Shown here: positions 52,448-64,000 of the stretch, piece by piece
Layout: every line of letters begins with the position of its first letter
Numbering within the stretch: the stretch's first letter is position 1
Source of the DNA: an uncultured bacterium
Lineage (GTDB): Bacteria; Verrucomicrobiota; Verrucomicrobiia; Limisphaerales; UBA8199
Reading direction: 5' to 3'
DNA: 64,000 bases
Assembly (NCBI GenBank): GCA_963749495.1
Contig: CAVVMW010000021.1
Coordinates: 384,001-448,000, forward strand
The notes under the pieces: model-generated
Told to the model about the DNA's origin: nothing
The model's input: only the letters and a program-made list of their open reading frames with translations
The model's database searches: none
Position numbers and translations under genes: made by a program

Positions 52448-53704
52448 ATGAACGACATTCGTCCGCGTTGGTTTGAGCGCAACCTCCAATCCGCCCTCCG
52501 AGTGCTGCCCGTGACGGTCGTCACCGGCGCGCGGCAGACGGGCAAGACGACCCTGGTCAAGTCCCTTGGACCCGGCCGCGCCTACTTCACGCTGGATGAG
52601 GTCGGCGTGTTGGACCAAGCCGAGCGCGATCCCGACGCCCTGCTCCGCAGCCGGCCGGTCACGCTCGATGAAGTGCAGCGCACTCCGCCCCTGCTCCTGG
52701 CCGTCAAGCGGGCGGTGGACGAGCGCCGGCGCGCGGGTGATTTCCTGCTCACCGGCTCCGCCAACCTGCTCCTCATGGGCCGCGTGGCCGACACGCTGGC
52801 CGGGCGCGCGATCTACCTCGAACTGCCGCCCTTCTGCCCGTCGGAATGGCAGCAACGAAGGGACGCCCTCCTGCCGCTCGACCGCCTCTTTGCGGCCGAC
52901 TTCGACTTCCGGGAGTGGCCGGCTCAAACCGGCGACTGGCCAGGTTGGCTCCTGCGGGGCGGCTTCCCTCCGGCGCTCGCCATCGCGGGCGACGCCGATC
53001 GCGCGCTGTGGTTTTCCGCCTACGTCCAGACCTACCTGGAGCGCGATCTCCGTCAATTGAGCGCGGTGTCCAGCCTGCCGGACTTCCAAAGGGTGATGGC
53101 GCTGGCCGCTCACCGGGTGGGCCGGTTGCTCAACCAGGCCGACATCGCCCGCAACGCCGCGCTGCCCCATCCCACCGCGCACCGCTACCTGAACCTGCTG
53201 GAAACCGGCTGCCTGGTCACCCGCATCCGCCCCTTTGCCACGAACCCGTCCATTCCGCTCGTCAAGGCGCCCAAGCTGTTCTGGACCGACTGCGGCCTCG
53301 CGGCTTCCCTGGCTGGCATCAAGACCCCGGCGGACTTGGCCAACCGTCCCGACACGGGTTTCTGGCTGGAACAGACTCTCTTCCAGACGCTGCAAACCTG
53401 GCGCGCGTTGGAGCCGCTTGGGCGCAAACTCCATTTCTGGCGGGACCGGTCGGGACGTGAGGTTGATTTCGTTCTCGAACAGGGCGGAAAGCTGGTCGCA
53501 CTGGAAATCAAAACCGCCAGCACGGTCACCAGTGCCGACGCGGCTGGCATCCGGGCGTTTCGCGATTCGCTCACGAGGAAATCGGCGCTCGTGCGCAGCG
53601 CTGTGTTTCACGCCGGTCAAGCTCGCCCGCTGGACACCGACATCCTCGCGCTGCCTTGGGGATGGATGGTGGCCGCACTAGAGTCCTTGAATTTCAAAAC
53701 GTGA
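52448..53704 (+). CDS. AAA_14 ATPase with DUF4143 domain
   Basis: GARQTGKTT, LDEVQ, LTGS, GGFP, YLERD, KAPKL and EVDF...EIK. Confidence 0.9.
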   Translation: MNDIRPRWFERNLQSALRVLPVTVVTGARQTGKTTLVKSLGPGRAYFTLDEVGVLDQAERDPDALLRSRPVTLDEVQRTPPLLLAVKRAVDERRRAGDFLLTGSANLLLMGRVADTLAGRAIYLELPPFCPSEWQQRRDALLPLDRLFAADFDFREWPAQTGDWPGWLLRGGFPPALAIAGDADRALWFSAYVQTYLERDLRQLSAVSSLPDFQRVMALAAHRVGRLLNQADIARNAALPHPTAHRYLNLLETGCLVTRIRPFATNPSIPLVKAPKLFWTDCGLAASLAGIKTPADLANRPDTGFWLEQTLFQTLQTWRALEPLGRKLHFWRDRSGREVDFVLEQGGKLVALEIKTASTVTSADAAGIRAFRDSLTRKSALVRSAVFHAGQARPLDTDILALPWGWMVAALESLNFKT

Positions 53705-53846
53705 TGCAGACAGGTCAAGTTTGTGGCACGGGCATCCTGCCCGTGGGGGGGGCTTGGGCAGGATGCCCGAGCCACGGTCTGAGGCCCTGCCTCTCTAGAA
53801 GAATCGTGCCAGGACCGGCGGGGATAAAACTGACCTCCTTGAGCTT

Positions 53847-53990
53847 CAAGTTGAGAGGCGCATCTTTTTGCTCCGTGGCCTCAGGGTCATGTTCGACTAC
53901 GACCTCGCTGAGCTTTACGGTGTGGAGACCAAGGCCCTGAACCGTGCCGTTAAGAGGAATGTCGAGCGTTTTCCAGACGACTTCATGTGT
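53847..53990 (+). pseudogene. ORF6N domain fragment (N-terminal part)
   Basis: QVERRIFLLRGLRVMFDYDLAELYGVETKALNRAVKRNVERFPDDFM; frame not in the ORF track. Confidence 0.8.
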
Positions 53991-53991
53991 G

Positions 53992-54303
53992 CTAAAGGAG
54001 GCCATCTCGCCTCAACTCCGCTTTGAACTGCTCGTGCGGGATGGTCGGTTCCTCCCGCCGTTCTGCTATCGCGGCGAGATCGTCGAGGTCCTCCAGCATC
54101 TTTTCATAATCCGTGATGGGGAGCACCACGGCCGTTTTCTTGCCGGCCTCGTCGGTCAGATACCGAAGCGATTGGGCGTCAATGGGCACAAGGACAGCCA
54201 CCGGTTCCCCCTGCGCCGTGACAACCAGGTCGCCGGCCCTGGCCGCCTCGCGCCATTGCTCCGTTGGCTTCCGCTTCAGCTCACTAACCGTGATCGTGCT
54301 CAT
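53992..54303 (-). CDS. Antitoxin-like protein (Phd-like N-terminus), orphan
   Basis: MSTITVSELK...VVT..GEPVAVL, followed by YLTDEAGKKTAVVLPI...LEDLDD. Confidence 0.65.
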   Translation of the reverse strand: MSTITVSELKRKPTEQWREAARAGDLVVTAQGEPVAVLVPIDAQSLRYLTDEAGKKTAVVLPITDYEKMLEDLDDLAAIAERREEPTIPHEQFKAELRRDGLL

Positions 54304-54700
54304 GGCTGCAATCTACCCCATTCGGGACGCCTCCCGCAAGCTGGCGCTGATGCGGAGGATGGTCCTTCGAGAACGGGGTCAGCCAACCCATAGCATGGTT
54401 CGCACCGTCGCGGAACCACACCAAGCTATGGGCTGACCCATAATTCGAGTTCGTCGGCCATCCCGTGGTGGACCGCTGTGCAGCGCCAGGCACTGGCGGG
54501 GCGCAGGCATCTTTGTCCCAACCTTTGTCGCAGCCTTTGTCGCAACCTTTGTCGATTTGGGCGGGTTTTCGACAAAGGTTCCGACGAAGGTTTCGACAAA
54601 GACACCAGAGGTCACCCCAAGCGCCTGACGGTGGGGCCGGAGTGAGGGGCTGCTCACCCGGGCCGAAGGCCAGGCGCGGCCCCTCGACCCCGCCCCTCGG

Positions 54701-55834
54701 TCACGCCGCCTGGCGCTGGGCGGGGCGGGCGGGGATGCCGGCCAGGCGGGCCAGTTCGCGGTGGAGGCGGGCGACACGTTCGACCTGGCCCTTGGCGGCA
54801 AACCGCTCGTAAAAGCCCTCGTTGCGGAAGTCGCGCACGTGCTCGGTCCATGGGGAGAGCCGCTGACGCCAGCGGTCGAGGCGGCCCTCTTCGGGGGCGG
54901 CGTCCTGGGCGGCGAGATCGGCGCAGACGCGGATCATGGCCTTGAGGGTGACCGGTTTGGTGACCATGTGGCTGTCATTGCCCCAGGCCTCCTCGAAGAC
55001 CTGCGAGGCGGCCTTGAGAAAATCGCCGACGCAGTCGTAATAGCGGGCCGCCGCCCGTTTGTCGGCGCCTTCGGGCTCGATTTGCTGCCAGTCCTGTTTG
55101 ACCCAGCGATGGATTTCGTTGAACAACTCCGCCTGGAGGATCCACTTGTCCTGTTTGCTGCGGCCACCCAGGCGGTTGATGCGATACCGCAGCGGGCTGT
55201 CCCCCTGGCTGTAGAGCATCTGGACGACCCGCGCCGCGAACCGGCGGTCCGGCTCCGCCCAGGACACCCGCTCGTAGAGGTCCACCAGGTGGCTCTTGTT
55301 GATGCGCGTGGGCGTCGAGTTGATGATGACGAACATCTCCGCGGCAAAATCCTCGCTCCGCCCGTCGAAGATGACGCACGGCACATAGATCGACTTGGCC
55401 TCGTCCGGGTGCGTCCGCTCGTAGAACTGCAGCGCGGCCAGCCGGTGCTGCCCGTCTATGATCAGGAATTTCTCCGCCGGGTCCGGGAGGTTGCCCACCG
55501 TCTGGTTTCCCGCCAGCAACTCGAATTGGAGCTTCTCCGGCGTGAACAGCAGCACCGTGCCCGGTATCGGCGGCTGGCTCACGGCCGTCTCGTAGAAGTT
55601 GCGGATGGCGCGCACCTTCGAGCGCGAGAGCAACCGCTGGAAGGCCTTCTCGCTCCGCTCGACCCGCCCAATGAATTGCGCCACGTCGTCCTCCGCCGCC
55701 GCCTCTTCGGGCTTGATCTCCTCGCCCTCGTCGTAAAAACGGCTGATGAACCGCACCCGGCCCAGCAGGTCCTCCGACGGATAAGCCACGAAATAAAACA
55801 CCGCGTCCTTCTGCCGTATCTGCGTTGCGATCAT
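54701..55834 (-). CDS. DGQHR-domain protein (DndB-like, ParB/Srx superfamily)
   Basis: FQR, IIDGQHR and F..IN motifs. Confidence 0.88.
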   Translation of the reverse strand: MIATQIRQKDAVFYFVAYPSEDLLGRVRFISRFYDEGEEIKPEEAAAEDDVAQFIGRVERSEKAFQRLLSRSKVRAIRNFYETAVSQPPIPGTVLLFTPEKLQFELLAGNQTVGNLPDPAEKFLIIDGQHRLAALQFYERTHPDEAKSIYVPCVIFDGRSEDFAAEMFVIINSTPTRINKSHLVDLYERVSWAEPDRRFAARVVQMLYSQGDSPLRYRINRLGGRSKQDKWILQAELFNEIHRWVKQDWQQIEPEGADKRAAARYYDCVGDFLKAASQVFEEAWGNDSHMVTKPVTLKAMIRVCADLAAQDAAPEEGRLDRWRQRLSPWTEHVRDFRNEGFYERFAAKGQVERVARLHRELARLAGIPARPAQRQAA

Positions 55835-55973
55835 TTCTGCGCCTTTCGTTGAAACTGCACCCGGTTCGCCAATGCGCCCGGCCCTCGTAAAACCCGACGC
55901 GTCCGGCCTGGCGCGTTCGCCATCGAGGGCCATCTTAATCCGGCTCCGCCCGGAAGACAAGACCAGGCGAGTC

Positions 55974-56108
55974 GTAGCGCAGGTTTCCAAACCTGCTGTA
56001 TCGCCGATTTCCAATCGGCAGGGCGTCGGCATATCGAGCGCCCCCGATTTGCCGACGGCCTGCGGGTTTGGAAACCCGCGATACGGCAGGTTTGGAAACC
56101 TGCGCTAC
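55974..56108. repeat. GTAG-type REP doublet (GTAGCGCAGGTTTCCAAACCTGC)
   Basis: Inverted arms; related copy at 61801-61937. Confidence 0.8.
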
Positions 56109-56246
56109 GCTGGCGCCCCGGGGCGCACAGGCGCGCCGAGCGACTCTGTCAATGGCCCTGCCCCGTCCCTCGGCGGTCCCCACTTCTTGCTTGCGGCATG
56201 ACAAAACATGGCCGATGGTCCTTCACACTGGATAGGCACACACTTT

Positions 56247-57515
56247 ATGAACGGCCCGGAGCTTTCGGTCCTCTTTTTCATGCAGATGTTCTGCATCCTG
56301 GCGGTCTGCCGCGGGGTGGGGGCGGTGGCGCGCCGGCTGGGCCAGCCGCAGGTGGTGGGGGAGATGGTTGCGGGGGTGTTCCTGGGGCCGTCCTTGCTGG
56401 GGCTGGTGTTGCCCGGACCGCAGCAGCAACTCTTTCCCGGAGAATCTTTGAAGTTCCTCTACATCGGGGCCCAGTTGGGCGTGGGTCTTTATATGTTCCT
56501 GGTGGGGGTGGAATTCAACAGGGAGACCTTTGCGAACCGGGCGCGGAGCGCTTTGACGATCTCGGCAGCCGGGATGGTTGCGCCGTTCCTCCTGGGCGCC
56601 GGGCTGGCGCTGGCTTTCTTCAAGGCCCCGGGCTTGTTTTCGACTCGGGCGACCCCGTTCGAGGCGATGCTCTTTTTGGGGGCGGCGATGTCGATTACGG
56701 CGTTCCCGATGCTCGCGCGGATCATCTATGAGCGCGGGTTGACGGGTTCGCCGCTGGGCACGCTGACTCTGGCAGCGGGAGCGCTTGGGGACGCGGGGGC
56801 GTGGTGCGTGCTGGCGATCGTGCTGGCCAGCTTCGGCGCAGGACCGGCGGTGGCGGTCAGGGCCATCGCGGGCGGGCTGGCTTACGGGGTCGGCGTGCTC
56901 ACCATTGGGCGGAGGCTCCTGGCCCGGCTCGGCGTGGCGGCGGAGCGTGCCGGCAGAATCACTCCCGGCCTGATGGCTCTTACCCTGATGCTCTTCCTGC
57001 TGGGGGCCTGCACCACCGATGCCATCGGCATTCATGCCGTGTTCGGCGGTTTCCTGCTCGGGGTGGCGATGCCGCGGGGGTTCTTCGCGCGCGAAATCCG
57101 GCGCCAACTCGAGCCGTTTGCCGTCGTCTTCCTCCTGCCGATGTTTTTCACTTTCTCCGGGCTCAACACCCGGCTCGACCTGCTGGTGAATCCGCAGATG
57201 TGCTGGATCGCTCTCGCCATCATCGCGGCGGCCTGCCTGGGCAAGGGGGGCGCCTGCTGGGCGGCAGCGCGGCTCGGTGGGGAGGACAACCGGACGGCCC
57301 TGGCGGTCGGCACCCTGATGAACGCGCGGGGCCTCATGGAGTTGATCCTCATCAACATCGGCCTCCAGCGAGGCATCATCCAGCCCGGGCTTTTCTCGAC
57401 CCTGGTCCTCATGGCCATCGTTACAACCCTAATGGCCTCGCCCGTCTTCGAGTGGGTCTATGGGCGCCACGCCCGCAAGAGCGAGGGCCTGAAAGTCATG
57501 CCCGCGGAGGCGTGA
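56247..57515 (+). CDS. Cation:proton antiporter (CPA2)
   Basis: GQPQVVGEM.AG..LGPS, SITAFP.LARI, MNARGLMELI and many TM helices. Confidence 0.9.
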   Translation: MNGPELSVLFFMQMFCILAVCRGVGAVARRLGQPQVVGEMVAGVFLGPSLLGLVLPGPQQQLFPGESLKFLYIGAQLGVGLYMFLVGVEFNRETFANRARSALTISAAGMVAPFLLGAGLALAFFKAPGLFSTRATPFEAMLFLGAAMSITAFPMLARIIYERGLTGSPLGTLTLAAGALGDAGAWCVLAIVLASFGAGPAVAVRAIAGGLAYGVGVLTIGRRLLARLGVAAERAGRITPGLMALTLMLFLLGACTTDAIGIHAVFGGFLLGVAMPRGFFAREIRRQLEPFAVVFLLPMFFTFSGLNTRLDLLVNPQMCWIALAIIAAACLGKGGACWAAARLGGEDNRTALAVGTLMNARGLMELILINIGLQRGIIQPGLFSTLVLMAIVTTLMASPVFEWVYGRHARKSEGLKVMPAEA

Positions 57516-57626
57516 AGCAGGGGAGACCTTTGTCGCAGCCTTTGTCGAAACCTTTGTCGGACCGGCCATGTTGCGATTAGATTAGACCTTGGTTCATAAG
57601 TAATCGGACACGCATACACCTCGCAC

Positions 57627-57728
57627 AAAAGCGGCAGAGGACTGCCGCACTCCAAAACGCTTCGCGAAGCAGGGATGCGGCCGAGGTCGCGCTAGCGTCT
57701 TGGAGTGCGGCAGTCCTCTGCCGCTTTT
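57627..57728. repeat. Inverted repeat element (AAAAGCGGCAGAGGACTGCCGCACTCCAA)
   Basis: ~29-bp inverted arms between convergent genes. Confidence 0.75.
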
Positions 57729-57880
57729 CCTCGCAAACCCAATCTCTAAGCCCGTGCCGAGGGGCAGAGATTCCTGTTGTTGACCTTCGATTTCTGGCTT
57801 CCTGTGAACGGAGACCTAACGACAAAGGCTGCGACAAAGGTTGCGACAAAGGTCCGGAGCTGGGGTTTTTGGGCCGCGCG

Positions 57881-59014
57881 TTACCTGAAGCGGGTTTGCT
57901 CGAAGCGCGCGTAATCCTTCATCATCTGCTCGGTGGCGCTGGGGGGGATGGTTTTCAGCGCGCACTCGATGTCCTCGGGGGTGAGCAGGTTGGAGCCGCC
58001 GCCGATCGCGCGGCGGAAGCCGGCCCGCTTGGCGCTTTGGATAATGGCGACGATGTCCGACCCGGTGTAGCCGTTGAGCCTCGGCGCCAGGGCCGGGGGG
58101 TTCACCGCCGCATCGACCGGGGCGGCGCCGAGCTGCTTCTTGAGCATGAACTCAATCGCCGGCTCATCGGGCAGGCCGACGAAGATCTTCTCGTCGAACC
58201 GGCCGGTGCGGAAGACGGCGTCATCGATGTCCCAGGGTTTATTGGTGGCGCCCAGCAGGAGCAGGACGTTGGGGGACTCGACGAATCCGCCGATCTCGGC
58301 CAGGAACTGGACGACCAGGCGGTTGTCCACCACGGAGTTGCCGCCCCGGCGCGGGAGCAGGCCGTCCACGTCATCCAGGAAGAGGACGCTGACCGCCTGG
58401 GAGCGTGCGGCCAGGATGAGCTTGCGCAGGCGCTGCTCGGATTCCCCATGCCATTTGCTGCGGATCTCGGCGCCGGTCGCGTAAAAAAAGGCCGCGTCCA
58501 ATTCCCCCGCCACCGCCTTGCCCAGGGTGGTTTTGCCGTTGCCCGGCGGGCCAAAAAGGAGCAGGCCGCCGCCGGCGCGGATGCCCCATTCCCTGGCCTT
58601 GTCCGGGTGCCGCATCGGTTCGATGACCATCTCATCCAGCTTGGTCTTGACATCGTCCATGCCAGCGATGTCGTTCAGACGCACGTTGGGCTTGTCGGTG
58701 ACCAGCCAGTCTTCGCTGCCCTCGGCCGCCTCCCCTTTGCCTGCGGGTTGGTCGCTCACCGGTTGGCGGGCCCGGCTGGACGAATCGGCGCCGGCGGCTT
58801 TGGCCTTCTGCTGCAACTCCTCGGCAATCTCGACCAGGTCTCGAGCCTCGGTCACAAAACCGCGCCGGATCCGGCCGTCGGTCTTGTCCGAGAGCTTGAG
58901 GGCGAACTCGGCCGCCTTGGCCATGTGGAAGGCCCCGCCTCGCAAATTGCCCTCCTGCATCGCCGTTTCGGCGGCGGCCGCATGTTCACGCTTTTTATCG
59001 GCATCGAAGCTCAT
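57881..59014 (-). CDS. Vps4/CdvC-like AAA+ ATPase with an N-terminal MIT-like helical domain
   Basis: DKPNVRLNDIAG, GPPGNGKT, SKWHGESE, FLDD, ATNKPW, and a C-terminal helix PSATEQMMKDYARF; AAGGAGG RBS at 59019-59025. Confidence 0.8.
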   Translation of the reverse strand: MSFDADKKREHAAAAETAMQEGNLRGGAFHMAKAAEFALKLSDKTDGRIRRGFVTEARDLVEIAEELQQKAKAAGADSSSRARQPVSDQPAGKGEAAEGSEDWLVTDKPNVRLNDIAGMDDVKTKLDEMVIEPMRHPDKAREWGIRAGGGLLLFGPPGNGKTTLGKAVAGELDAAFFYATGAEIRSKWHGESEQRLRKLILAARSQAVSVLFLDDVDGLLPRRGGNSVVDNRLVVQFLAEIGGFVESPNVLLLLGATNKPWDIDDAVFRTGRFDEKIFVGLPDEPAIEFMLKKQLGAAPVDAAVNPPALAPRLNGYTGSDIVAIIQSAKRAGFRRAIGGGSNLLTPEDIECALKTIPPSATEQMMKDYARFEQTRFR

Positions 59015-59047
59015 TGTTCCTCCTTGGACCTCCTTGGTTCACCCGCA

Positions 59048-59962
59048 TTAGGTCTCCAGCCTCAGCGCAAAGGTCATAATCGAGACATTGTAGGCAAAGG
59101 CCAGGCCCGCCAGCAGGAGGAACAACGCCGCCGAGAACCAGGACGAAAAGCCGACCTCAAGCATCACCAAGGCCATGAGGACATCGACAGCCAGGTAAAT
59201 CCCCAGCGTGAAGGCATTCGAGCGGTTCGACCCCTTGCGCACCATGGTGCGGATGAATGAGATGGTGAGGACCGGGAGCAGCAGGACGATGGCCGCCCAG
59301 ATGAAGAGCCGCCGCGCCCAGGCCATCCGCTGCACCGGCGCCGGCGGGTCCAGCGCCGCTACGGCGGCCGCCGCCGTTGCACCGGGCGCCCCGGGCTTGG
59401 TCTCGTTATTGTAATGGCGCGTGAAGACCGTATCGCCGCTGCCCACCTCGGCCAGAGTCAGGTCGAGGTCGAGCCTGGCGCCGCCCGGATAGGACTCGAA
59501 GCTGTTGATCTTGCCGAAGAGCACCCCCTGCGCCCCGGAGCCGCCGGCCTGACGCTGCGCCTGGCCCGGCTCGGTCGGCCCCTGGACGCGCAGGTGCAGG
59601 GCCTTGCGGAGCCTGTCCCAGAGCCGCTCCTGGCGCACGTCGAAGACGCCGCTCTGCTCCAGCGCCGAGCGCAAGTGGTCGCTGACATAATCGCTCGGGT
59701 CATTGGCCAGGTGCAGCAGGACGACCGACCCGACGGGGGCCTTGGCTTTGCGCAGGTCCTCGACGATGAGCGGGACCATTTCGTTTGCCGTCTGTTTGCG
59801 CAGCATCCCCACCTCGGGCTTCGTGGGGCCGATGTAAAACCAGCCCTGCAACAGCAGATAACCCGCCAGGGCGGCCACGCCCAGGAACACGAGCAATCTG
59901 AACAGCCAGGTTACCGGATGGCGAACGACGCTGACAGGGGTTTCATATAATGTTCTTAACAT
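59048..59962 (-). CDS. Membrane protein: N-terminal TM, soluble alpha/beta domain, three C-terminal TMs
   Basis: Hydrophobic segments; L..SG.F.V.E...GAQGVLFG.I resembles the CsgG/TolB-N/LpoB-type fold. Confidence 0.7.
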   Translation of the reverse strand: MLRTLYETPVSVVRHPVTWLFRLLVFLGVAALAGYLLLQGWFYIGPTKPEVGMLRKQTANEMVPLIVEDLRKAKAPVGSVVLLHLANDPSDYVSDHLRSALEQSGVFDVRQERLWDRLRKALHLRVQGPTEPGQAQRQAGGSGAQGVLFGKINSFESYPGGARLDLDLTLAEVGSGDTVFTRHYNNETKPGAPGATAAAAVAALDPPAPVQRMAWARRLFIWAAIVLLLPVLTISFIRTMVRKGSNRSNAFTLGIYLAVDVLMALVMLEVGFSSWFSAALFLLLAGLAFAYNVSIMTFALRLET

Positions 59963-59980
59963 AGGCTCTCGCTTTCGCTC

Positions 59981-60638
59981 TTAGTGTTCATTGCCGTCGA
60001 TGATGCTCCGGGCCCGCCGCCGCAGGTCGGTGGTGTCCCCGGCCTCGGCCGTCTTTTGGACGGCCCCGCGTTCCCTGGAGGGCGATTCGCTCTCCTGCTG
60101 TGCGCCCACCTCGTCTTCGAGGTCCTTGAACATCTGGTCGATCGACGGGATGGTCTCGGCCATCGAGGTCTGGACCCCGTCCATCTCCTTGCCGTGCATC
60201 TTCTCCCAGAACGCGGTCGGTGTCCACCTGGTCGCCCAGCTTGTCCTCGACCTCGCCCAGCACGTCGGCTACGGAATCCGGATCGATCCTGACCACGGTG
60301 TTGATGGCCCCCAGGGCGCCGGAGAATTCCTGGTCGGTTTTGGCCATCTCCAGCTTGGCGAGCAATTGCTCGAAGACCCAGCGTTTCATCTCCAGCTTGG
60401 ACATCATCAACTCGCTGGCGCGGCAGGTCTGGAGGTTGCGCTGGGCGGCGGCCTTCTGGCCGTCCCGAAGGTAGCTCCGGGCATCGGCCCAGGCCTTGTC
60501 GCGGTCCGTCTTGAGCTTCTTGATGCGGTCCTTCACGGCATCCACCGCGCCCTCCGCCTCGCGAAAAGCCCTCCGCCGTCTGCTCCTGCCTTCGCGCTCG
60601 CGCTCTTGTCGGGATTTGAATAGGTCTTGAACGGCCAT
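59981..60638 (-). CDS. Snf7/ESCRT-III-like protein (218 aa after correcting a +1 frameshift near 60212)
   Basis: Basic N-terminus, helical hairpin with GQKAAAQRNL, LEMAK..QE...AL and IDPDSV.DVL.EVED, acidic tail, terminal helix DLRRRARSII. Confidence 0.7.
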
Positions 60639-60758
60639 AACTTTGGTTCTTTCAGATTTTCTTGGGTTAATTGGTTGGTTTTGTCGCTCCGGGCCAGCTT
60701 TCAAACGCCTCGTTTCTGCGTGCAAGGGGATGTGACATTCTCAATCTCTTTTCCTTCC

Positions 60759-61361
60759 TCACTCCAGCTCCAATTGCTTGAGCAACTTCAAGTCGTCCTG
60801 CGAAAAATGGCGGGCGGCGCCGCCCTGCGCGGGCATCTCGTGGAGCTCGCCCTCGCTGTTTTCGGAGGCGAACACCGCCGGCTTGTGTTTGATCTTCTGC
60901 AAATCCGTGAGGGCCTCGTTGGCCTCCTCGACGCGGTCCAAGGCCTCCTCCAATTGCACCGCGATGGCATCCAGGTCCTCTCCTTTGACCCCGCGCCCAA
61001 TGGCGTTTTCCAATTCGCCGAGCTTTTCCAGGGCCATGGTGTTGGCCTCGATGCTCGCCAGCAGGAAATCGCCCGGCCCTTCCATCCGGCTCAACTGCCT
61101 CAAGTCCATCTGGATTTCCTTGGCCAGGAGCCTCTGGTTCAAACCGCCGGTCCGGTCGTACTTCGCCTTTTTGTCTCGAATCCGCTTTTCGTGCTGCGTG
61201 ATCTCCTCCCGCAGCCCGTCCAGGCGGTCCTGGTTGCCGGCGCGATTCCGGGCCAAGCTGTCCCTCCAGAGCCTCAACTGCTCCTTCTCCCCGGGCCGCA
61301 GCCCCAGCCCTCGAGCCAGGCGCGAAGCCACCGAACCGATAAAATCGCTAAAATTCTCCAT
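60759..61361 (-). CDS. Coiled-coil protein, probable second ESCRT-III/PspA-superfamily paralog
   Basis: 200 aa; amphipathic N-terminal helix, basic first half and acidic second half, terminal helix SQDDLKLLKQLELE. Confidence 0.6.
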   Translation of the reverse strand: MENFSDFIGSVASRLARGLGLRPGEKEQLRLWRDSLARNRAGNQDRLDGLREEITQHEKRIRDKKAKYDRTGGLNQRLLAKEIQMDLRQLSRMEGPGDFLLASIEANTMALEKLGELENAIGRGVKGEDLDAIAVQLEEALDRVEEANEALTDLQKIKHKPAVFASENSEGELHEMPAQGGAARHFSQDDLKLLKQLELE

Positions 61362-61530
61362 GCATCTGTCCCTTCAATCACATTCAATGCCTTTTGAAAG
61401 ATCAGCCCGTTTGGACCACCGCCGGTGCCGCAGCCGCAACCGCAGCCGCCTTTCCTTACGGCGGAAAGCGGATTCCTATTCAGCGCGGCCGAGGATGGAG
61501 GAACCCCGGGGCCAATGTCGGGAGGCGCCC

Positions 61531-61760
61531 CAGGGCCGAAGGCCCGTCATGTGACAGCCCGGCCTGCAGCGGAGCGGAGGGCCGGGTAAGCCAGTGCCCG
61601 CGAAAACGGTCCCGGCCTGTAAGGCCGGGACCCTCTGCCCGAGGTCCCGAGCCTTGTTGCGCCCTTGCAGGGCGCGACCGATTGTCTCCCGATGACCTGG
61701 GCCTCCGCTCGCAAGCTCGCTCCAGCCCAGGCGCTCACATTTCGGGCTTTCAGCCCGAGC
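61531..61760. repeat. Intact copy of the REP-like element that the IS4 interrupts
   Basis: Collinear with 45610-45749 plus 47649-47733; partial inverted copy at ~5948-6045. Confidence 0.85.
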
Positions 61761-61996
61761 GAGGGCGCACCTTAGTACTACCGGACGCAAATACGGTGAC
61801 GTAGCGCAGACCTCCGAGTCTGCTGTATCGCCGACTTCCAAGTCGGCTGCGCGTCCGTGAAGGCACGCGCGTCCGCACCTCGGTTGGCCCGCAGGTTTGG
61901 AAACCTGCGAGACAGCAGACTCGGAGGTCTGCGCTACCCTGGCGGCGGCCCTGCCGCGCATCGAGGATACGTCATCGTATTTATGAAACGGCCCAC

Positions 61997-64000
61997 TTAG
62001 TTCTCCTTAATCCAAACGATGGACCGTCCGCCGCGGTTTAACCTGGCGTAATTGGGAATGGCGGTCAGGGGCTGGCCGTTGGAGAAGGTGCCCTTGATGA
62101 CCATGACGCCGCCCAGCAAGTCCGGGTTCCATTCGGCGCGAAGGGGCGAGCCGGGGCCGAGGGCAAGGTCGAGATTCTGGTCAACGGTTTCGATGTTGTA
62201 GAGGAGAGCGCCATAGCGGAGGGCAACGCGTCCGCGGAGGGCGGCGACCTGGGGGGCGGCCCGGAGGCGCTGGACTTTCATCGGGAACATTACCTCAACT
62301 TTGTCCCCGGCCTTCCATGTGCGCGTGAGGCCGGCGTAGCCGTTCTCGATGGACGGTTTGACCGGGGACCCGTTGACGGAAATGGCCGTGAGGCCCTCGC
62401 AGGCGGGGCTTGCGGTGTAGAGGAGGCTGACATTCCTGCGCGGGACGCGGAGCTTGAGTGTGAACCGCTTTGGCTGGGCGGGGCTGACGCCGAGCTCCAC
62501 CTTGCCGCTCCATGGATAATCCGTGGTTTGGGTCAAGGTCACCGCGGTTCCGCCGATGTCCGCCTTGGCAGTGATTCCCGAGTAAAGATTGACAAAGAGG
62601 GCATCCGCCGTTTTGGAGCAGGTCCAGGACGGCAGCATGAGGAGGGTGCGCGGGATGTTTCCGACGCAGCACGGGCAGCCATGCCACTTGTAACGTTTCT
62701 CGCCGGAATCCAGCGGGTTTGTGTAGGTGAAGTTCTCGGCCTCGAGGTCGAGCGAGCCAAGAATGGCGTTGTAAAGCGTTTCCTCGTAGAGGTCGGCATA
62801 TTGCCCTTGGCCGTAGGTGAGCTGCAGCTTGTATTGGAAGAACAGCTCCCCGCAATCCGCGCACGATTCGGAATAGGCGCGGTTCGGGAGCGAGTAGTCC
62901 TTGCCAAAGCCCTCCGAGGTTTCGCCGCTGCCGATGCCGCCGGTGACGTAGTATTTCCGGTTCACGATGCTGTTCCACAACGACATGACCGCCGAGCGGT
63001 ATTCCGGGTCGCCCGTTTCCATGGCGATGTCCGCCATACCGGAGTAGCAATAGGCCGCGCGGACCGCGTGGCCGACCGCTTCGTACTGGCGGGTCACCGG
63101 CAGATGGCTCTGGTCGTACTCCTCGCCATGGCCGCGCGAGTCGAGGAGAAACCTTGCCAGTTCGATGTATTTCCGGCCCTTGCCCGGGCCGTCGAGCCGC
63201 TCGACGAACCGCCCCAGGCGGACCAGCGCCTGCTCGAGTTCTTCGTGGCCCTCGTACCAGGCCCGCTTGGGCGCCGGGCCGATGTTGGCGCACCAGCAAT
63301 CGGCGAGTTTTCGCGCCGCGTCGAACAGGCGCCGGTCTGCGCCATCGGTGAGCAGGCAATGGGCGATGGCGGCCTCGATGAAATACCCGGCGTTGTATCC
63401 TTCGTGGTCGAATTTGTTGGACCATCGTTTGTTGCCATTGATGGTGTACATCGTCTGGAGATACCCGTCCGGCTCCTGGGCGCCGAGGATGGTGGGTATC
63501 CAGTCCTCGAGGGTCTTTCGCAGGGCGCGCTGGGCATTGGCGATCTCCGGGTCGCCCTGCGGCTCGACCATCAGAGCCAGGCAAGTGGATTCCACCGTGT
63601 TATAGACCCACGCATTGGCGAAGGGGGCGCCGGTGTGCCTGGCGCCGCTCTTTCCCTCGAGTTTGTTGGCGGCCTGCACGAAATTCTCGATGCCCCCTTC
63701 GGGCAGTCTTGGATCCGAGATTTTGGCCGCGCAGTGTGGAATCCAATGAACGATAATGTTTTTGATCCGAGGCCTCCAGAAGGGACTGCCCACGCTGTAG
63801 GGTTCGGGCCAGACCGTCTCCAAGTGGTTGCTGGGGGCCGGCGGTTCAACGGTCACGTTGACGGTGTTGGTGGAGGCGAATTGCCCGTCGTCCGCTTTGA
63901 GCGCGAGCACGTAAACGCCGGGCTCGGAAAAACGCGCCGCGCTTTCGGGCTCGCCTGGACTCTCAAACGCCACGGAGCCGGGCCCGACAGCTTCCCCCAT
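61997..64000 (-). CDS. GH127 beta-L-arabinofuranosidase-like protein with a PKD-like domain (5'-partial)
   Basis: HEGY, GHAVRA, YVTGG.GS, YSESCA and CPCC..N. Confidence 0.88.
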   Translation of the reverse strand: MGEAVGPGSVAFESPGEPESAARFSEPGVYVLALKADDGQFASTNTVNVTVEPPAPSNHLETVWPEPYSVGSPFWRPRIKNIIVHWIPHCAAKISDPRLPEGGIENFVQAANKLEGKSGARHTGAPFANAWVYNTVESTCLALMVEPQGDPEIANAQRALRKTLEDWIPTILGAQEPDGYLQTMYTINGNKRWSNKFDHEGYNAGYFIEAAIAHCLLTDGADRRLFDAARKLADCWCANIGPAPKRAWYEGHEELEQALVRLGRFVERLDGPGKGRKYIELARFLLDSRGHGEEYDQSHLPVTRQYEAVGHAVRAAYCYSGMADIAMETGDPEYRSAVMSLWNSIVNRKYYVTGGIGSGETSEGFGKDYSLPNRAYSESCADCGELFFQYKLQLTYGQGQYADLYEETLYNAILGSLDLEAENFTYTNPLDSGEKRYKWHGCPCCVGNIPRTLLMLPSWTCSKTADALFVNLYSGITAKADIGGTAVTLTQTTDYPWSGKVELGVSPAQPKRFTLKLRVPRRNVSLLYTASPACEGLTAISVNGSPVKPSIENGYAGLTRTWKAGDKVEVMFPMKVQRLRAAPQVAALRGRVALRYGALLYNIETVDQNLDLALGPGSPLRAEWNPDLLGGVMVIKGTFSNGQPLTAIPNYARLNRGGRSIVWIKEN

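Follow-up and report, generated by a model that had tools for sequence, protein, structure and literature searches.

Does any bacterium couple a Snf7-type polymer to a Vps4-type ATPase? According to recent reviews, this pairing is missing from bacteria. The question is raised by four adjacent genes in a 64,000-nucleotide stretch of bacterial DNA, which we refer to as the window. Taken together, the predicted products point to a bacterial ESCRT-III/Vps4-like membrane-remodelling module, which we consider the probable reading of the cluster.

Organisation of the locus

All four genes lie on the minus strand (Table 1) and encode, in the order of transcription, a helical protein that we call cc1 (gene 1), a Snf7-like protein (gene 2), a protein with four transmembrane segments (the 4-TM protein) and an AAA ATPase. 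The ORF coordinates give intergenic gaps of 120 bp (60639-60758), 18 bp (59963-59980) and 33 bp (59015-59047). An initial annotation of this DNA had described the same co-directional arrangement, and both the strand and the gap coordinates are exact; its 218-aa gene 2, and with it the 18-bp gap, holds when one extra base is skipped but not as one continuous open frame. The same annotation placed the cluster between repeats. These are real, but further copies of both flanking repeats are found at 54509-54601 and 55973-56109, the latter being the second copy of the upstream inverted repeat, which identifies them as dispersed intergenic palindromes and not as boundaries specific to the module. 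The terminator-like hairpin downstream of the ATPase gene sits within a 35-nt palindrome. The host had been taken for a member of the PVC group, and this proved right, a contig of the same genus belonging to Verrucomicrobiota. The carrier is described as a soil or sediment-type bacterium.

Table 1. Features of the four-gene cluster and its flanks, in window coordinates
Feature	Position	Strand	Basis
cc1 gene (gene 1)	60759-61361	-	ORF listing, 200 aa
Snf7-like gene (gene 2), N-terminal part (family residues 1 to ~144)	60207-60638	-	Pfam Snf7, family profile match
Frameshift site, one base more than in four relatives	60207-60216	-	DNA alignment, two-piece profile match
Snf7-like gene, C-terminal part in shifted frame	59981-60211	-	72-aa ORF (59981-60199), profile match 143-217
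4-TM protein gene	59048-59962	-	ORF listing, 304 aa
ATPase gene	57881-59014	-	ORF listing, 377 aa
ATPase N-terminal domain with predicted MIT fold (residues 1-76)	58787-59014	-	AF2, Foldseek, VIA-align
Single classic-clade AAA cassette, lid and C-terminal helix	57881-58702	-	Pfam AAA, AAA_lid_3
Terminator-like GC hairpin with T-run, just past the ATPase stop	57631-57648	-	consensus match only
Dispersed palindromic repeat block downstream of the module	57514-57858	.	12-nt tandem units, inverted orientation
Inverted repeat upstream of the module, 41-nt (61801-61937)	61800-61944	.	repeat search

Gene 2 is assigned by sequence to the Snf7 family

The description of gene 2 as Snf7-like is upheld by its relatives: Pfam Snf7 (PF03357) matches 26 of 27 family members at E <= 0.01 (best E 8.8e-11), and PspA_IM30 (PF04012) is absent from the families listed for these 27. 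The N-terminal part encoded in the window reaches 28.0 bits against a gathering cut-off of 27.3, and one member (L004, the first) no more than 19.9 bits; scores of single members thus fall on either side of the cut-off. PspA_IM30 matched neither of the two helical proteins of the window, nor any protein of the host genome, which is 88% complete. The closest PDB sequence match of the Snf7-like protein is yeast Snf7, and the family profile aligns to the yeast Snf7 core structure with E 3.6e-4. In an intact relative (G003) the protein is strongly asymmetric in charge, with +9 in its N-terminal half (pI 9.9) and -14 in its C-terminal half (pI 4.4). The C-terminal part consists of an acidic segment, a linker that is variable and floppy, and a terminal helix of conserved, basic/hydrophobic character; the type and motif of this tail co-vary with the subtype of the ATPase, and the tail encoded in the window is that of relatives of the same subtype. 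On these profiles, gene 2 encodes a true Snf7-family protein and not one of PspA type.

Read from the ATG at 60638, the frame of gene 2 runs to a stop at 59988 and yields 216 aa, of which the final ~55 residues are off-frame; the conserved C-terminus is carried by the 72-aa ORF in another frame. The Snf7 family profile matches the gene in two pieces, 1-144 and 143-217, and alignment with the DNA of four relatives places the extra base near 60207-60216. Matches in the 12 other matching Verrucomicrobiota genomes contain no internal stops, and none is split between frames. The gene in the host assembly (G000) therefore carries a one-base insertion, which reflects either an assembly error at this base or a recent inactivation of the copy; the site has no coverage in public runs. 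This frameshift was left out of the initial annotation, as were the ties of the relatives to caspase-like proteases and kinases.

A real insertion would cut the Snf7-like protein short, ahead of its acidic region and terminal helix, and the locus would be a decaying, non-functional remnant in this genome. We judge this rather unlikely. The extra base and the split match, found only in this genome, are what it would predict, and two further features are compatible with it. The first is a rearranged gene order: the TM gene stands here between the Snf7-like and ATPase genes, which overlap in 13 other genomes. The second is an Asp in place of the Walker B Glu (DD for DE), but this DD is common to 3 of the 21 other ATPases of the family and those three relatives are intact. 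Past the shift, 72 codons still form a conserved open frame, and none of the other three genes is disrupted; this agrees with an assembly error or a change that happened very recently, and the assembly itself is made up of 31 contigs with 88% completeness and 5.8% contamination.

The module recurs across phyla, with proteases and kinases as frequent neighbours

Co-conservation of the four genes is borne out by related loci in Verrucomicrobiota, Planctomycetota, Hydrogenedentota, Desulfobacteraceae and Anaerolineales. Among 16 genomes with such loci, the 4-TM protein is present in 13, cc1 is encoded beside the Snf7-like gene in 10, and nine have all four genes. The recurrence of the arrangement in many genomes puts it far from chance. 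In 13 of the 16 the Snf7-like gene is followed directly by the ATPase gene with a 4-nt overlap, which argues for coupled expression. The module is rare, occurring in 13 of 401 sampled Verrucomicrobiota.

The surroundings, which vary from genome to genome, include genes for proteases, kinases, FHA and SPFH proteins; reverse transcriptases and transposases also lie close by. Caspase or CHAT genes occur in the module locus of 11 of the 26 other genomes, and caspases can be concentrated there: in one genome three of four caspase genes are in the locus, and in another all six lie within 14 kb of it. A Desulfobacteraceae MAG and a Thermoguttaceae MAG share the order cc1-caspase-Snf7-ATPase, and the His and Cys catalytic columns are kept in all nine aligned caspases.

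With such neighbours, the same parts might have another role in a conflict or programmed-cell-death system, as its executioner or its brake, a reading that we regard as possible but on balance doubtful. Caspase, CHAT or papain proteases, or kinases, would sense infection or damage and switch on the Snf7-like polymer, for example by cutting an autoinhibitory acidic tail; the membrane would be sealed or lethally disrupted, and the ATPase would reset the system. The protease-rich loci, the intact catalytic residues, the changing neighbourhood and the patchy spread all favour this role, yet the module of the window itself has no protease or kinase neighbour and the single caspase gene of the host genome lies 134 kb away. 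Two defence models, IetA of PADLOC (95.6 bits) and the anti-phage model IteA of NCBIfam (90.3 bits, cut-off 510), also match the ATPase weakly, but these scores reflect generic AAA similarity and lie far under those of the CDC48 and CdvC models; in the IetAS/IteAS anti-phage systems the IetA-type ATPase is paired with the protease IetS. None of cc1, the Snf7-like protein and the 4-TM protein is matched by a PADLOC model, phage and plasmid collections gave no match to the Snf7-like protein, and no cleavage site was identified.

More broadly, and only tentatively, we suggest that Vps4-coupled, Snf7-type ESCRT-III may be a horizontally mobile module of several bacterial phyla, often wired to caspase-like proteases or kinases, and either a prokaryotic counterpart of the way in which eukaryotes tie ESCRT-III repair to regulated cell death or membrane damage, or a protease-triggered membrane effector. 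If true, a mobile bacterial module would overturn the view of ESCRT-III plus Vps4 as restricted to archaea and eukaryotes.

The ATPase joins a predicted MIT domain to a single AAA cassette

The ATPase's N-terminal domain was modelled by AF2 as three helices with a pLDDT of 93.3. In Foldseek, MIT domains make up seven of the ten best rows (CdvC, SKD1, an S. solfataricus Vps4-like protein, VPS4B, NRBF2 with TM 0.87, VPS4A and MITD1), the best match being the MIT domain of archaeal CdvC (2w2u) at 27% identity. A wide VIA-align search of 48,161 chains likewise returned MIT-domain entries in seven of its top ten places, with Z 10.5-11.3 (MITD1, SKD1, katanin p60, Vps4, VPS4A, CdvC and calpain-7). 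By sequence, Pfam MIT matched none of 14 members of the ATPase family and the profile of the N-domain found no MIT chain. Judged from its model, the domain is confidently predicted to be an MIT three-helix domain.

The remainder of the protein is the single AAA cassette that the initial annotation had described, matched by Pfam AAA at 2.6e-33 and by AAA_lid_3. It has a GPPGNGKT Walker A motif, an aromatic pore loop and the DD Walker B mentioned above, followed by a small domain and C-terminal helix of ~94 residues. The further designation of the ATPase as Vps4-like stands in part: one cassette behind an MIT-fold domain agrees with it, but Vps4_C (PF09336) has no match at E <= 1 in the ATPase of the window, and the NCBIfam CDC48 model outscores CdvC. 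The window's protein scores 195.1 bits with CDC48 (cut-off 802.65) and 178.6 bits with CdvC (equivalog cut-off 650). In all eight family members CDC48 leads, with margins of 6.6 to 41.6 bits; in two of the eight CdvC is also exceeded by the proteasome-activating nucleotidase model, and across the family the CdvC equivalog model gives 160-204 bits against its cut-off of 650. Vps4_C is seen in a distant relative (L020) at 22.3 bits. By these scores the ATPase is a candidate member, not an established one, of the Vps4/meiotic clade.

These scores leave some room for another reading, in which the ATPase branched off from Cdc48/VAT with one cassette and serves as a general unfoldase or extracts membrane proteins, with the helical proteins as its adaptors and the likeness to Vps4 convergent. 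VAT, Cdc48 and p97 are indeed the closest solved relatives by sequence, and theirs is the most similar cassette. They have two cassettes, however, and the ATPase has one, preceded by an MIT fold and not by the double-psi barrel of the Cdc48 N-domain, while its obligatory partner is a Snf7-family protein. A tree that included FtsH and sampled two-cassette proteins, but no named Vps4, katanin or spastin, places every MIT-bearing cassette on one side, with weak support of 77-89, apart from FtsH and from the canonical, distinct D1 and D2 groups of those two-cassette proteins. We therefore consider a Cdc48 offshoot improbable and retain the comparison with Vps4.

The 4-TM protein and cc1

Hydropathy analysis of the third gene product gave hydrophobic segments at residues ~18-44, 216-240, 250-272 and 275-298, in agreement with the four transmembrane segments called earlier. 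One N-terminal segment is followed by a soluble domain of ~170 aa and by three C-terminal segments with a conserved basic loop. The soluble domain has a weak LpoB-like similarity (E 0.0042, below the cut-off). All 116 relatives bear the source-given name 'hypothetical protein', and the protein represents a family specific to this system.

The AF2 model of cc1 (pLDDT 79.3) has helices at residues 2-16, 23-70, 74-123, 127-158 and 188-199, that is, a short N-terminal helix, a long hairpin, a fourth helix, a disordered linker and a conserved C-terminal helix. This modelled plan resembles that of ESCRT-III, and in Foldseek CdvB2, CdvB and Asgard ESCRT-IIIB appear at E 0.1-0.4. In VIA-align, designed helical bundles at Z 12.2 rank ahead of IST1-CHMP1B (Z 9.0) and Ist1 (Z 8.9), and the nearest named language-model clusters, Snf7 (0.86) and PspA (0.82), serve as leads only. 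No Pfam family, Snf7 and PspA included, and no PDB entry is matched by the sequence, and its profile finds only generic coiled coils in the PDB. The initial reading of gene 1 as a second ESCRT-III protein is not established: profile-profile comparison with the Snf7-like family (hhalign) gave a probability of 0.6%, amounting to no detectable homology, and the fold matches lie within the noise expected of helical bundles. It is possible that cc1 is a divergent member of the ESCRT-III superfamily.

Proposed mechanism and relation to known systems

In the membrane-remodelling module that we favour, the Snf7-like protein, probably together with cc1, would polymerise at the cytoplasmic face of the inner membrane, where the 4-TM protein may nucleate or anchor the polymer. 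The ATPase would dock through its MIT domain on the terminal helices and pull subunits through its pore; the resulting turnover of the polymer could drive membrane repair, constriction or vesiculation. Given the links of the module to caspase/CHAT proteases, Ser/Thr kinases or SPFH proteins in many relatives, envelope damage or conflict signals probably trigger its activity.

The nearest parallels are archaeal. In the parts of Makarova et al. 2024 (PMC10936438) that deal with CdvB/CdvC-type systems, a Snf7-family gene lies directly upstream of a gene for an MIT plus one-AAA ATPase of ~370-380 aa, ESCRT-III proteins have a terminal helix on a floppy tail, and one archaeal group has a neighbour of SPFH plus zinc-ribbon type, as do three of the bacterial relatives (L040, L042 and L043). 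Unlike the archaeal Cdv systems, the present one has a bacterial host, and neither CdvA nor a winged-helix (ESCRT-II-like) partner could be recognised in it; cc1 and the 4-TM protein with its LpoB-like domain stand in their place. The low scores with the CdvC equivalog model and the frequent protease and kinase neighbours are further differences. With eukaryotic Snf7/CHMP4 and Vps4 the module shares the Pfam Snf7 match, the split into basic and acidic halves and the MIT-AAA architecture, whereas the ATPase of the window lacks a match to the beta-domain/Vps4_C, ESCRT-I and ESCRT-II are absent, and the bacterial tail is at most a putative MIT-binding motif (MIM).

PspA and Vipp1 (IM30) belong to the same superfamily and likewise act, in all likelihood, at the inner membrane, and they are its usual bacterial members in the sections of PMC8281802 covered; an envelope-stress system of this type, whose polymer works without an ATPase partner beside an unrelated AAA gene, might fill the niche left by the missing PspA_IM30 match in the host genome, but with PspA_IM30 unmatched in both helical proteins, a dedicated MIT-AAA partner in place of PspF/PspBC and the 4-nt overlap of the Snf7-like and ATPase genes, we consider it very improbable.

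Related bacterial contexts, left out of the initial annotation, are described in the passages and supplement rows of Ravi et al. 2024 (PMC11237479) that were searched. The combination of a soluble Snf7, a one-cassette MIT-AAA ATPase, a 4-TM protein and cc1 was not found in this material, which reports a bacterial MIT plus Vps4-like ATPase followed by a TPR plus 6TM protein, in operons where snf7 is displaced, and a two-cassette AAA ATPase that accompanies PspA or a TM-anchored divergent Snf7. The Snf7-with-AAA case differs from ours in its signal- or TM-anchored Snf7 and in a double AAA ATPase with one inactive and one active cassette. These contexts are alike in their lineages, which include Verrucomicrobia and Planctomycetes, and in that an MIT plus AAA protein or a Snf7-clade protein adjoins an AAA ATPase; for them the authors, in the same passages, suggest ATP-dependent membrane remodelling.

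Organisation of the locus

To characterise the four-gene module, we re-examined its reading frames and surroundings in the genome of the window (G000, an 11.37-Mb assembly of 31 contigs, 88% complete with 5.8% contamination; the window is G000:C21:384001-448000). In transcription order the genes encode a helical protein (cc1), a Snf7-like protein, a transmembrane (TM) protein and an ATPase. The gaps of 120, 18 and 33 bp reported in the initial annotation are exact, and hydropathy identifies the four segments of the 4-TM protein. However, the 218-aa Snf7-like product of that annotation, and with it the 18-bp gap, hold only if two frames are joined, and there is no single open frame. The raw sequence, and its alignment to the DNA of four relatives, reveal one extra base near 60207-60216, and the family profile matches the gene in two pieces, 1-144 and 143-217. 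The matches in 12 further Verrucomicrobiota genomes have no internal stops and are never split across frames, leaving G000 as the sole frame-split copy among 13. Since the 72 codons past the frameshift are open and conserved, the shift is either recent or an assembly error; the local gene is thus broken or mis-assembled. The best carriers among public sequencing runs contained 0.13 and 0.10 of the words, with contigs spanning 60284-60502, outside the frameshift site, and no RNA run was listed among the public carriers.

The repeats described as bounding the module are real, but copies at two other nearby sites mark them as dispersed palindromes. These intergenic repeats are of two kinds: one has 12-nt tandem units arranged as inverted arms, and the other is an inverted repeat of 41-42 nt. 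A terminator-like hairpin lies 3′ of the ATPase stop codon, and no sigma-70-like promoter was found within 57400-62100.

Table. Positions of the module's genes, neighbouring features and variant loci (window coordinates unless a locus, L, or genome, G, is named)
Feature	Position	Strand	Source or context
cc1 ORF, 200 aa	60759-61361	minus	ORF listing
Snf7-like gene, first frame, 216 aa	ATG 60638 to stop 59988	minus	ORF listing
Snf7-like gene, other frame, 72-aa ORF	59981-60199	minus	ORF listing
TM protein ORF, 304 aa	59048-59962	minus	ORF listing
ATPase ORF, 377 aa	57881-59014	minus	ORF listing
Walker B box DD, ATPase residues ~208-215	58370-58393	minus	ATPase motifs
DUF4143/AAA_14 ATPase	52448-53704		accessory patch 52448-56032, adjoining the module
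96-aa ORF	53715-54005		accessory patch; overlaps the antitoxin
Phd/YefM-RelB antitoxin	53992-54303		accessory patch
DndB/DpdB-like gene	54701-56032		accessory patch
Palindromic repeats	54509-54601, 57514-57858, 55973-56109, 61800-61944		intergenic
Ten-gene cluster	L010:221-11277		same strand
Eight-gene cluster	L014:3791-12648		same strand
Same-genus (G003) locus	L047:5012-11638		
SPFH/Band-7 proteins with double zinc ribbons	L040:13718-15346, L042:4840-6510, L043:3352-4437		adjoin modules with Trp-type pore loop
Tandem Snf7-like locus	L044:8041-10019		G308
Variant with 412-aa protein	L020:157-2640, G155:C66:15036-15557		

The second gene belongs to the Snf7 family

The N-terminal part of the window's Snf7-like protein scores 28.0 bits against Pfam Snf7, above the gathering cut-off of 27.3, and the best solved sequence relative of the protein is yeast Snf7 (family profile, E 3.6e-4). 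Pfam Snf7 is matched by 26 of the 27 aligned members, the best at 8.8e-11, and PspA_IM30 is absent from the families listed for these 27. These sequence matches place the protein in the Snf7 family, as had been proposed. Its N-terminal half is basic and its C-terminal half acidic, and the C-terminus consists of a variable linker followed by a conserved basic/hydrophobic helix.

A word-indexed search returned 344 relatives. The best 120 of these share 65-100% identity with the same-genus copy, originate from MAGs of Verrucomicrobiota, Planctomycetota, Phycisphaeraceae, Hydrogenedentes, Thermodesulfobacteriota and one Dongiaceae, and are unnamed or called 'hypothetical', with the exception of two JGI labels reading V-ATPase subunit. 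Plasmid and phage collections yielded zero matches.

The genes are co-conserved across phyla

The proposed operon was assessed in 16 comparison genomes, comprising two of the same genus and 14 named MAG loci (Verrucomicrobiota, Anaerolineales, Phycisphaerae, Hydrogenedentota, Desulfobacteraceae, Planctomycetaceae, Thermoguttaceae and other Planctomycetota). The complete set of four occurs in 9/16, the TM gene in 13/16 and cc1 in 10/16; some of the absences fall at contig ends. In 13 of the 16 there is a 4-nt overlap between the ATPase gene and the Snf7 stop codon. Co-conservation of the genes across phyla is borne out. The module was found in two of three other same-genus genomes, with the gene order TM-cc1-Snf7-ATPase; in G000 the TM gene has been relocated between the Snf7-like and ATPase genes.

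In an even sample of Verrucomicrobiota the Snf7-like profile matched 13/401 genomes and 11/185 genera, and the tightly coupled Snf7 and MIT-AAA ATPase pair is strongly conserved, with 65-94% identity across phyla. That the module is rare and patchy yet so highly conserved suggests lateral spread. PspA_IM30 occurs in 0/13 module genomes versus 39/401 overall, numbers too few to mean anything, and gave no match in the whole of G000 (88% complete).

The ATPase combines a predicted MIT fold with a single cassette

The initial annotation had called the ATPase Vps4-like. Pfam recognises one AAA cassette and its lid. Residues 1-79 form three helices in the predicted model (pLDDT 93.3), and MIT domains, the N-terminal domain type of Vps4 and CdvC, occupy 7 of the 10 best Foldseek rows: archaeal CdvC 2w2u (27% identity), SKD1, an S. 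solfataricus Vps4-like protein, VPS4B, NRBF2 (TM-score 0.87), VPS4A (TM-score 0.82-0.84) and MITD1. Katanin p60, ULK3 and calpain-7 appear lower down, and all E-values exceed 0.001, as expected at so small a size. A fold search independent of Foldseek, run over 48,161 representative chains, placed titled MIT-domain entries at 7 of its top 10 positions (Z 10.5-11.3) with TPR-like proteins close behind, and a language-model look-up gave, as a lead only, MIT clusters at 0.84 and 0.81. Pfam MIT matched none of 14 family members, the sequence profile of the N-domain found no MIT in the PDB but only weak Sel1/HEPN-like matches, and the ATPase itself was the only MIT-tagged protein found in G000. Judged from the model, the architecture is Vps4-like.

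At the sequence level, by contrast, the enzyme looks closer to Cdc48 than to Vps4. Its best matches among solved structures are VAT, Cdc48 and p97, whose D2 domain alone scores 174 bits, and among eight family members the NCBIfam model CDC48 ranks first in 8/8 and CdvC second in 6/8, all scores being far under the curated cut-offs. Vps4_C has no match in the window's ATPase and only three marginal matches across 401 Verrucomicrobiota, one of them in another member of the family. The N-domain is present in 8 of the 150 best library representatives, which are mostly multi-cassette proteins; the library entries P0144 and P0209 resemble an MIT-AAA protein fused with a second cassette.

We also built a FastTree phylogeny of 75 of 368 cassettes (293 were excluded), covering all 23 from the family, one FtsH, every cassette of the eight MIT-bearing representatives and both of the first 20 two-cassette proteins. 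In this tree, which lacks named Vps4, katanin and spastin and has a midpoint root only, all MIT-bearing cassettes fall on one side and the canonical two-cassette proteins and FtsH on the other, with weak support (77-89). D1 and D2 of the canonical proteins form separate groups, and the MIT side also holds a few two-cassette proteins with near-duplicate cassettes. The Vps4-like description stands for the architecture, whereas the sequence scores do not remove the objection that the enzyme groups with p97, and membership in the Vps4 clade is unproven. Overall, the Snf7 plus MIT-AAA module is real, conserved and bacterial, and is best regarded as a variant of ESCRT-III/Vps4 systems.

The Snf7 tail covaries with the ATPase subtype

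One subtype comprises the ATPases of G000 and of loci L007 and L011: its pore loop is Trp-His, it carries the motif 'RTGRFDEK' and its Walker B box reads DD. The window's enzyme is 71-74% identical to the other two, versus 40% to the copy of the same-genus genome G003. With L029, DD in place of DE, which turns the usual catalytic Glu into Asp, is found in 4/22 family ATPases. The L018 enzyme has the same loop and 'RTGRFDEK' motif but a DE Walker B, and most of the remaining ATPases have a Tyr-Val pore loop, 'RPGR' and an acidic C-terminal tail. The Snf7 tail motif covaries with these subtypes, a sequence pattern to be expected if the two proteins docked.

cc1 and the TM protein

The first gene had been read as a second ESCRT-III protein. 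The predicted model of cc1 (pLDDT 79.3) comprises a short N-terminal helix, a hairpin of 48 and 50 residues, a fourth helix, a disordered linker and a terminal helix, a plan that fits ESCRT-III. However, hhalign against the Snf7-like family gave a probability of 0.6%, and in a wide VIA-align search IST1-CHMP1B (Z 9.0) and Ist1 (Z 8.9) ranked 22 and 24, under designed bundles (Z 12.2). Pfam, NCBIfam and the PDB contain no sequence match, Foldseek returned nothing at E ≤ 0.001 (CdvB, CdvB2 and Asgard ESCRT-IIIB among the weak rows), and the nearest named language-model clusters, Snf7 and PspA, are leads only. A word search found only two relatives, and the alignment was therefore assembled from loci; copies adjoining the Snf7-like gene elsewhere are 22-37% identical and conserve the C-terminal helix. 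That cc1 is a divergent ESCRT-III member is possible but unproven.

The TM protein has 116 relatives, and wherever a source names one, the name is 'hypothetical protein'. Three carry a precomputed LpoB domain, and LpoB matches the window's protein below cut-off only.

Comparison with published systems

According to a 2025 review, bacteria appear to lack a Vps4-like ATPase (PMC7619361), and Makarova et al. (2024, PMC10936438) write that ESCRT homologs can be identified in archaea but not in bacteria. Bacterial MIT+Vps4-like ATPases, including those of Verrucomicrobia and Planctomycetes, are described in passages of Ravi et al. (2024, PMC11237479), where snf7 is 'displaced' in such operons by a TPR+6TM protein; the paper also lists a divergent Snf7, anchored by a TM segment, together with a two-cassette ATPase. 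Unlike those TPR+6TM systems, the window's module pairs a Snf7-like protein with the MIT-AAA ATPase; the module's architecture is not among the supplement rows and passages of that paper that match a term search. The literature searched contained neither a description of this architecture nor a bacterial Snf7-caspase link.

Possible mechanism and genomic neighbours

Snf7 membership, the gene coupling, the tail/ATPase covariation and the single cassette with its modelled MIT fold are established features to which steps known from ESCRT-III/Vps4 can be fitted. By analogy, the Snf7-like protein (with cc1) would polymerise on the inner membrane, the TM protein may anchor the polymer, the MIT domain would dock on the terminal helices, and the ATPase would extract subunits in an ATP-driven manner. 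The operon offers a direct handle on membrane upkeep in bacteria without PspA, and on whether ATP-driven ESCRT-III turnover is older or more mobile than thought.

The machinery may serve repair, vesiculation or a conflict response triggered by a protease or kinase. The last is a serious rival given the neighbours: caspase (Peptidase_C14) or CHAT genes occur in the module locus in 11/26 genomes (8/14 named loci, the G003 locus and 2/11 further Verrucomicrobiota loci), a count that excludes G374, a probable duplicate of L016; the contig of G001 ends inside the ATPase. This linkage is not background: the 11.4 Mb of G000 contain one caspase gene, 3/4 of those of the L010 genome lie in the locus and 6/6 of those of the L014 genome ≤14 kb from it, and in three other genomes the locus accounts for 1/4 or 1/5. 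L010 and L014 share the order cc1-caspase-Snf7-ATPase, and the catalytic His and Cys columns are kept in 9/9 aligned caspases. Ser/Thr kinases, often with FGE-sulfatase-like domains, also recur, as do SPFH plus zinc-ribbon proteins, papain-like and trypsin-like peptidases, DUF4384 proteins and FHA proteins. Such recurrent association with caspase/CHAT proteases, kinases and SPFH proteins suggests that the module acts in a regulated response to damage or conflict.

In the window the module stands alone, flanked on one side by a GH127 glycosidase and on the other by a Na+/H+ exchanger, the DndB-like gene, the Phd/YefM antitoxin and the DUF4143 ATPase. In the G003 locus a DUF4384 protein immediately precedes the TM gene, a 596-aa caspase immediately follows the ATPase and a group II intron reverse transcriptase lies upstream; G000 has none of the three there. 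The SPFH/Band-7 proteins with double zinc ribbons at L040, L042 and L043 recall the SPFH plus zinc-ribbon proteins of one archaeal ESCRT group, noted in a passage of PMC10936438.

Variant loci

At L044 a Snf7-like gene, cc1 and a second Snf7-like gene stand in tandem before a TM gene and a caspase, and no ATPase was recognised in the 18-kb stretch. In the L020/G155 variant a divergent Snf7-like gene and a 384-aa ATPase, whose N-terminus by eye resembles the family's MIT-fold domain and which has a marginal Vps4_C match, precede a coiled-coil protein of 412 aa, in whose AAA-like region the Walker A looks degenerate by eye. The L010 and L014 clusters interleave caspase genes with cc1, Snf7, ATPase and TM genes, and L010 also encodes two small proteins that match FYVE-like zinc fingers, the first at 30.2 bits (cut-off 27.8) and the second below it at 24.3.
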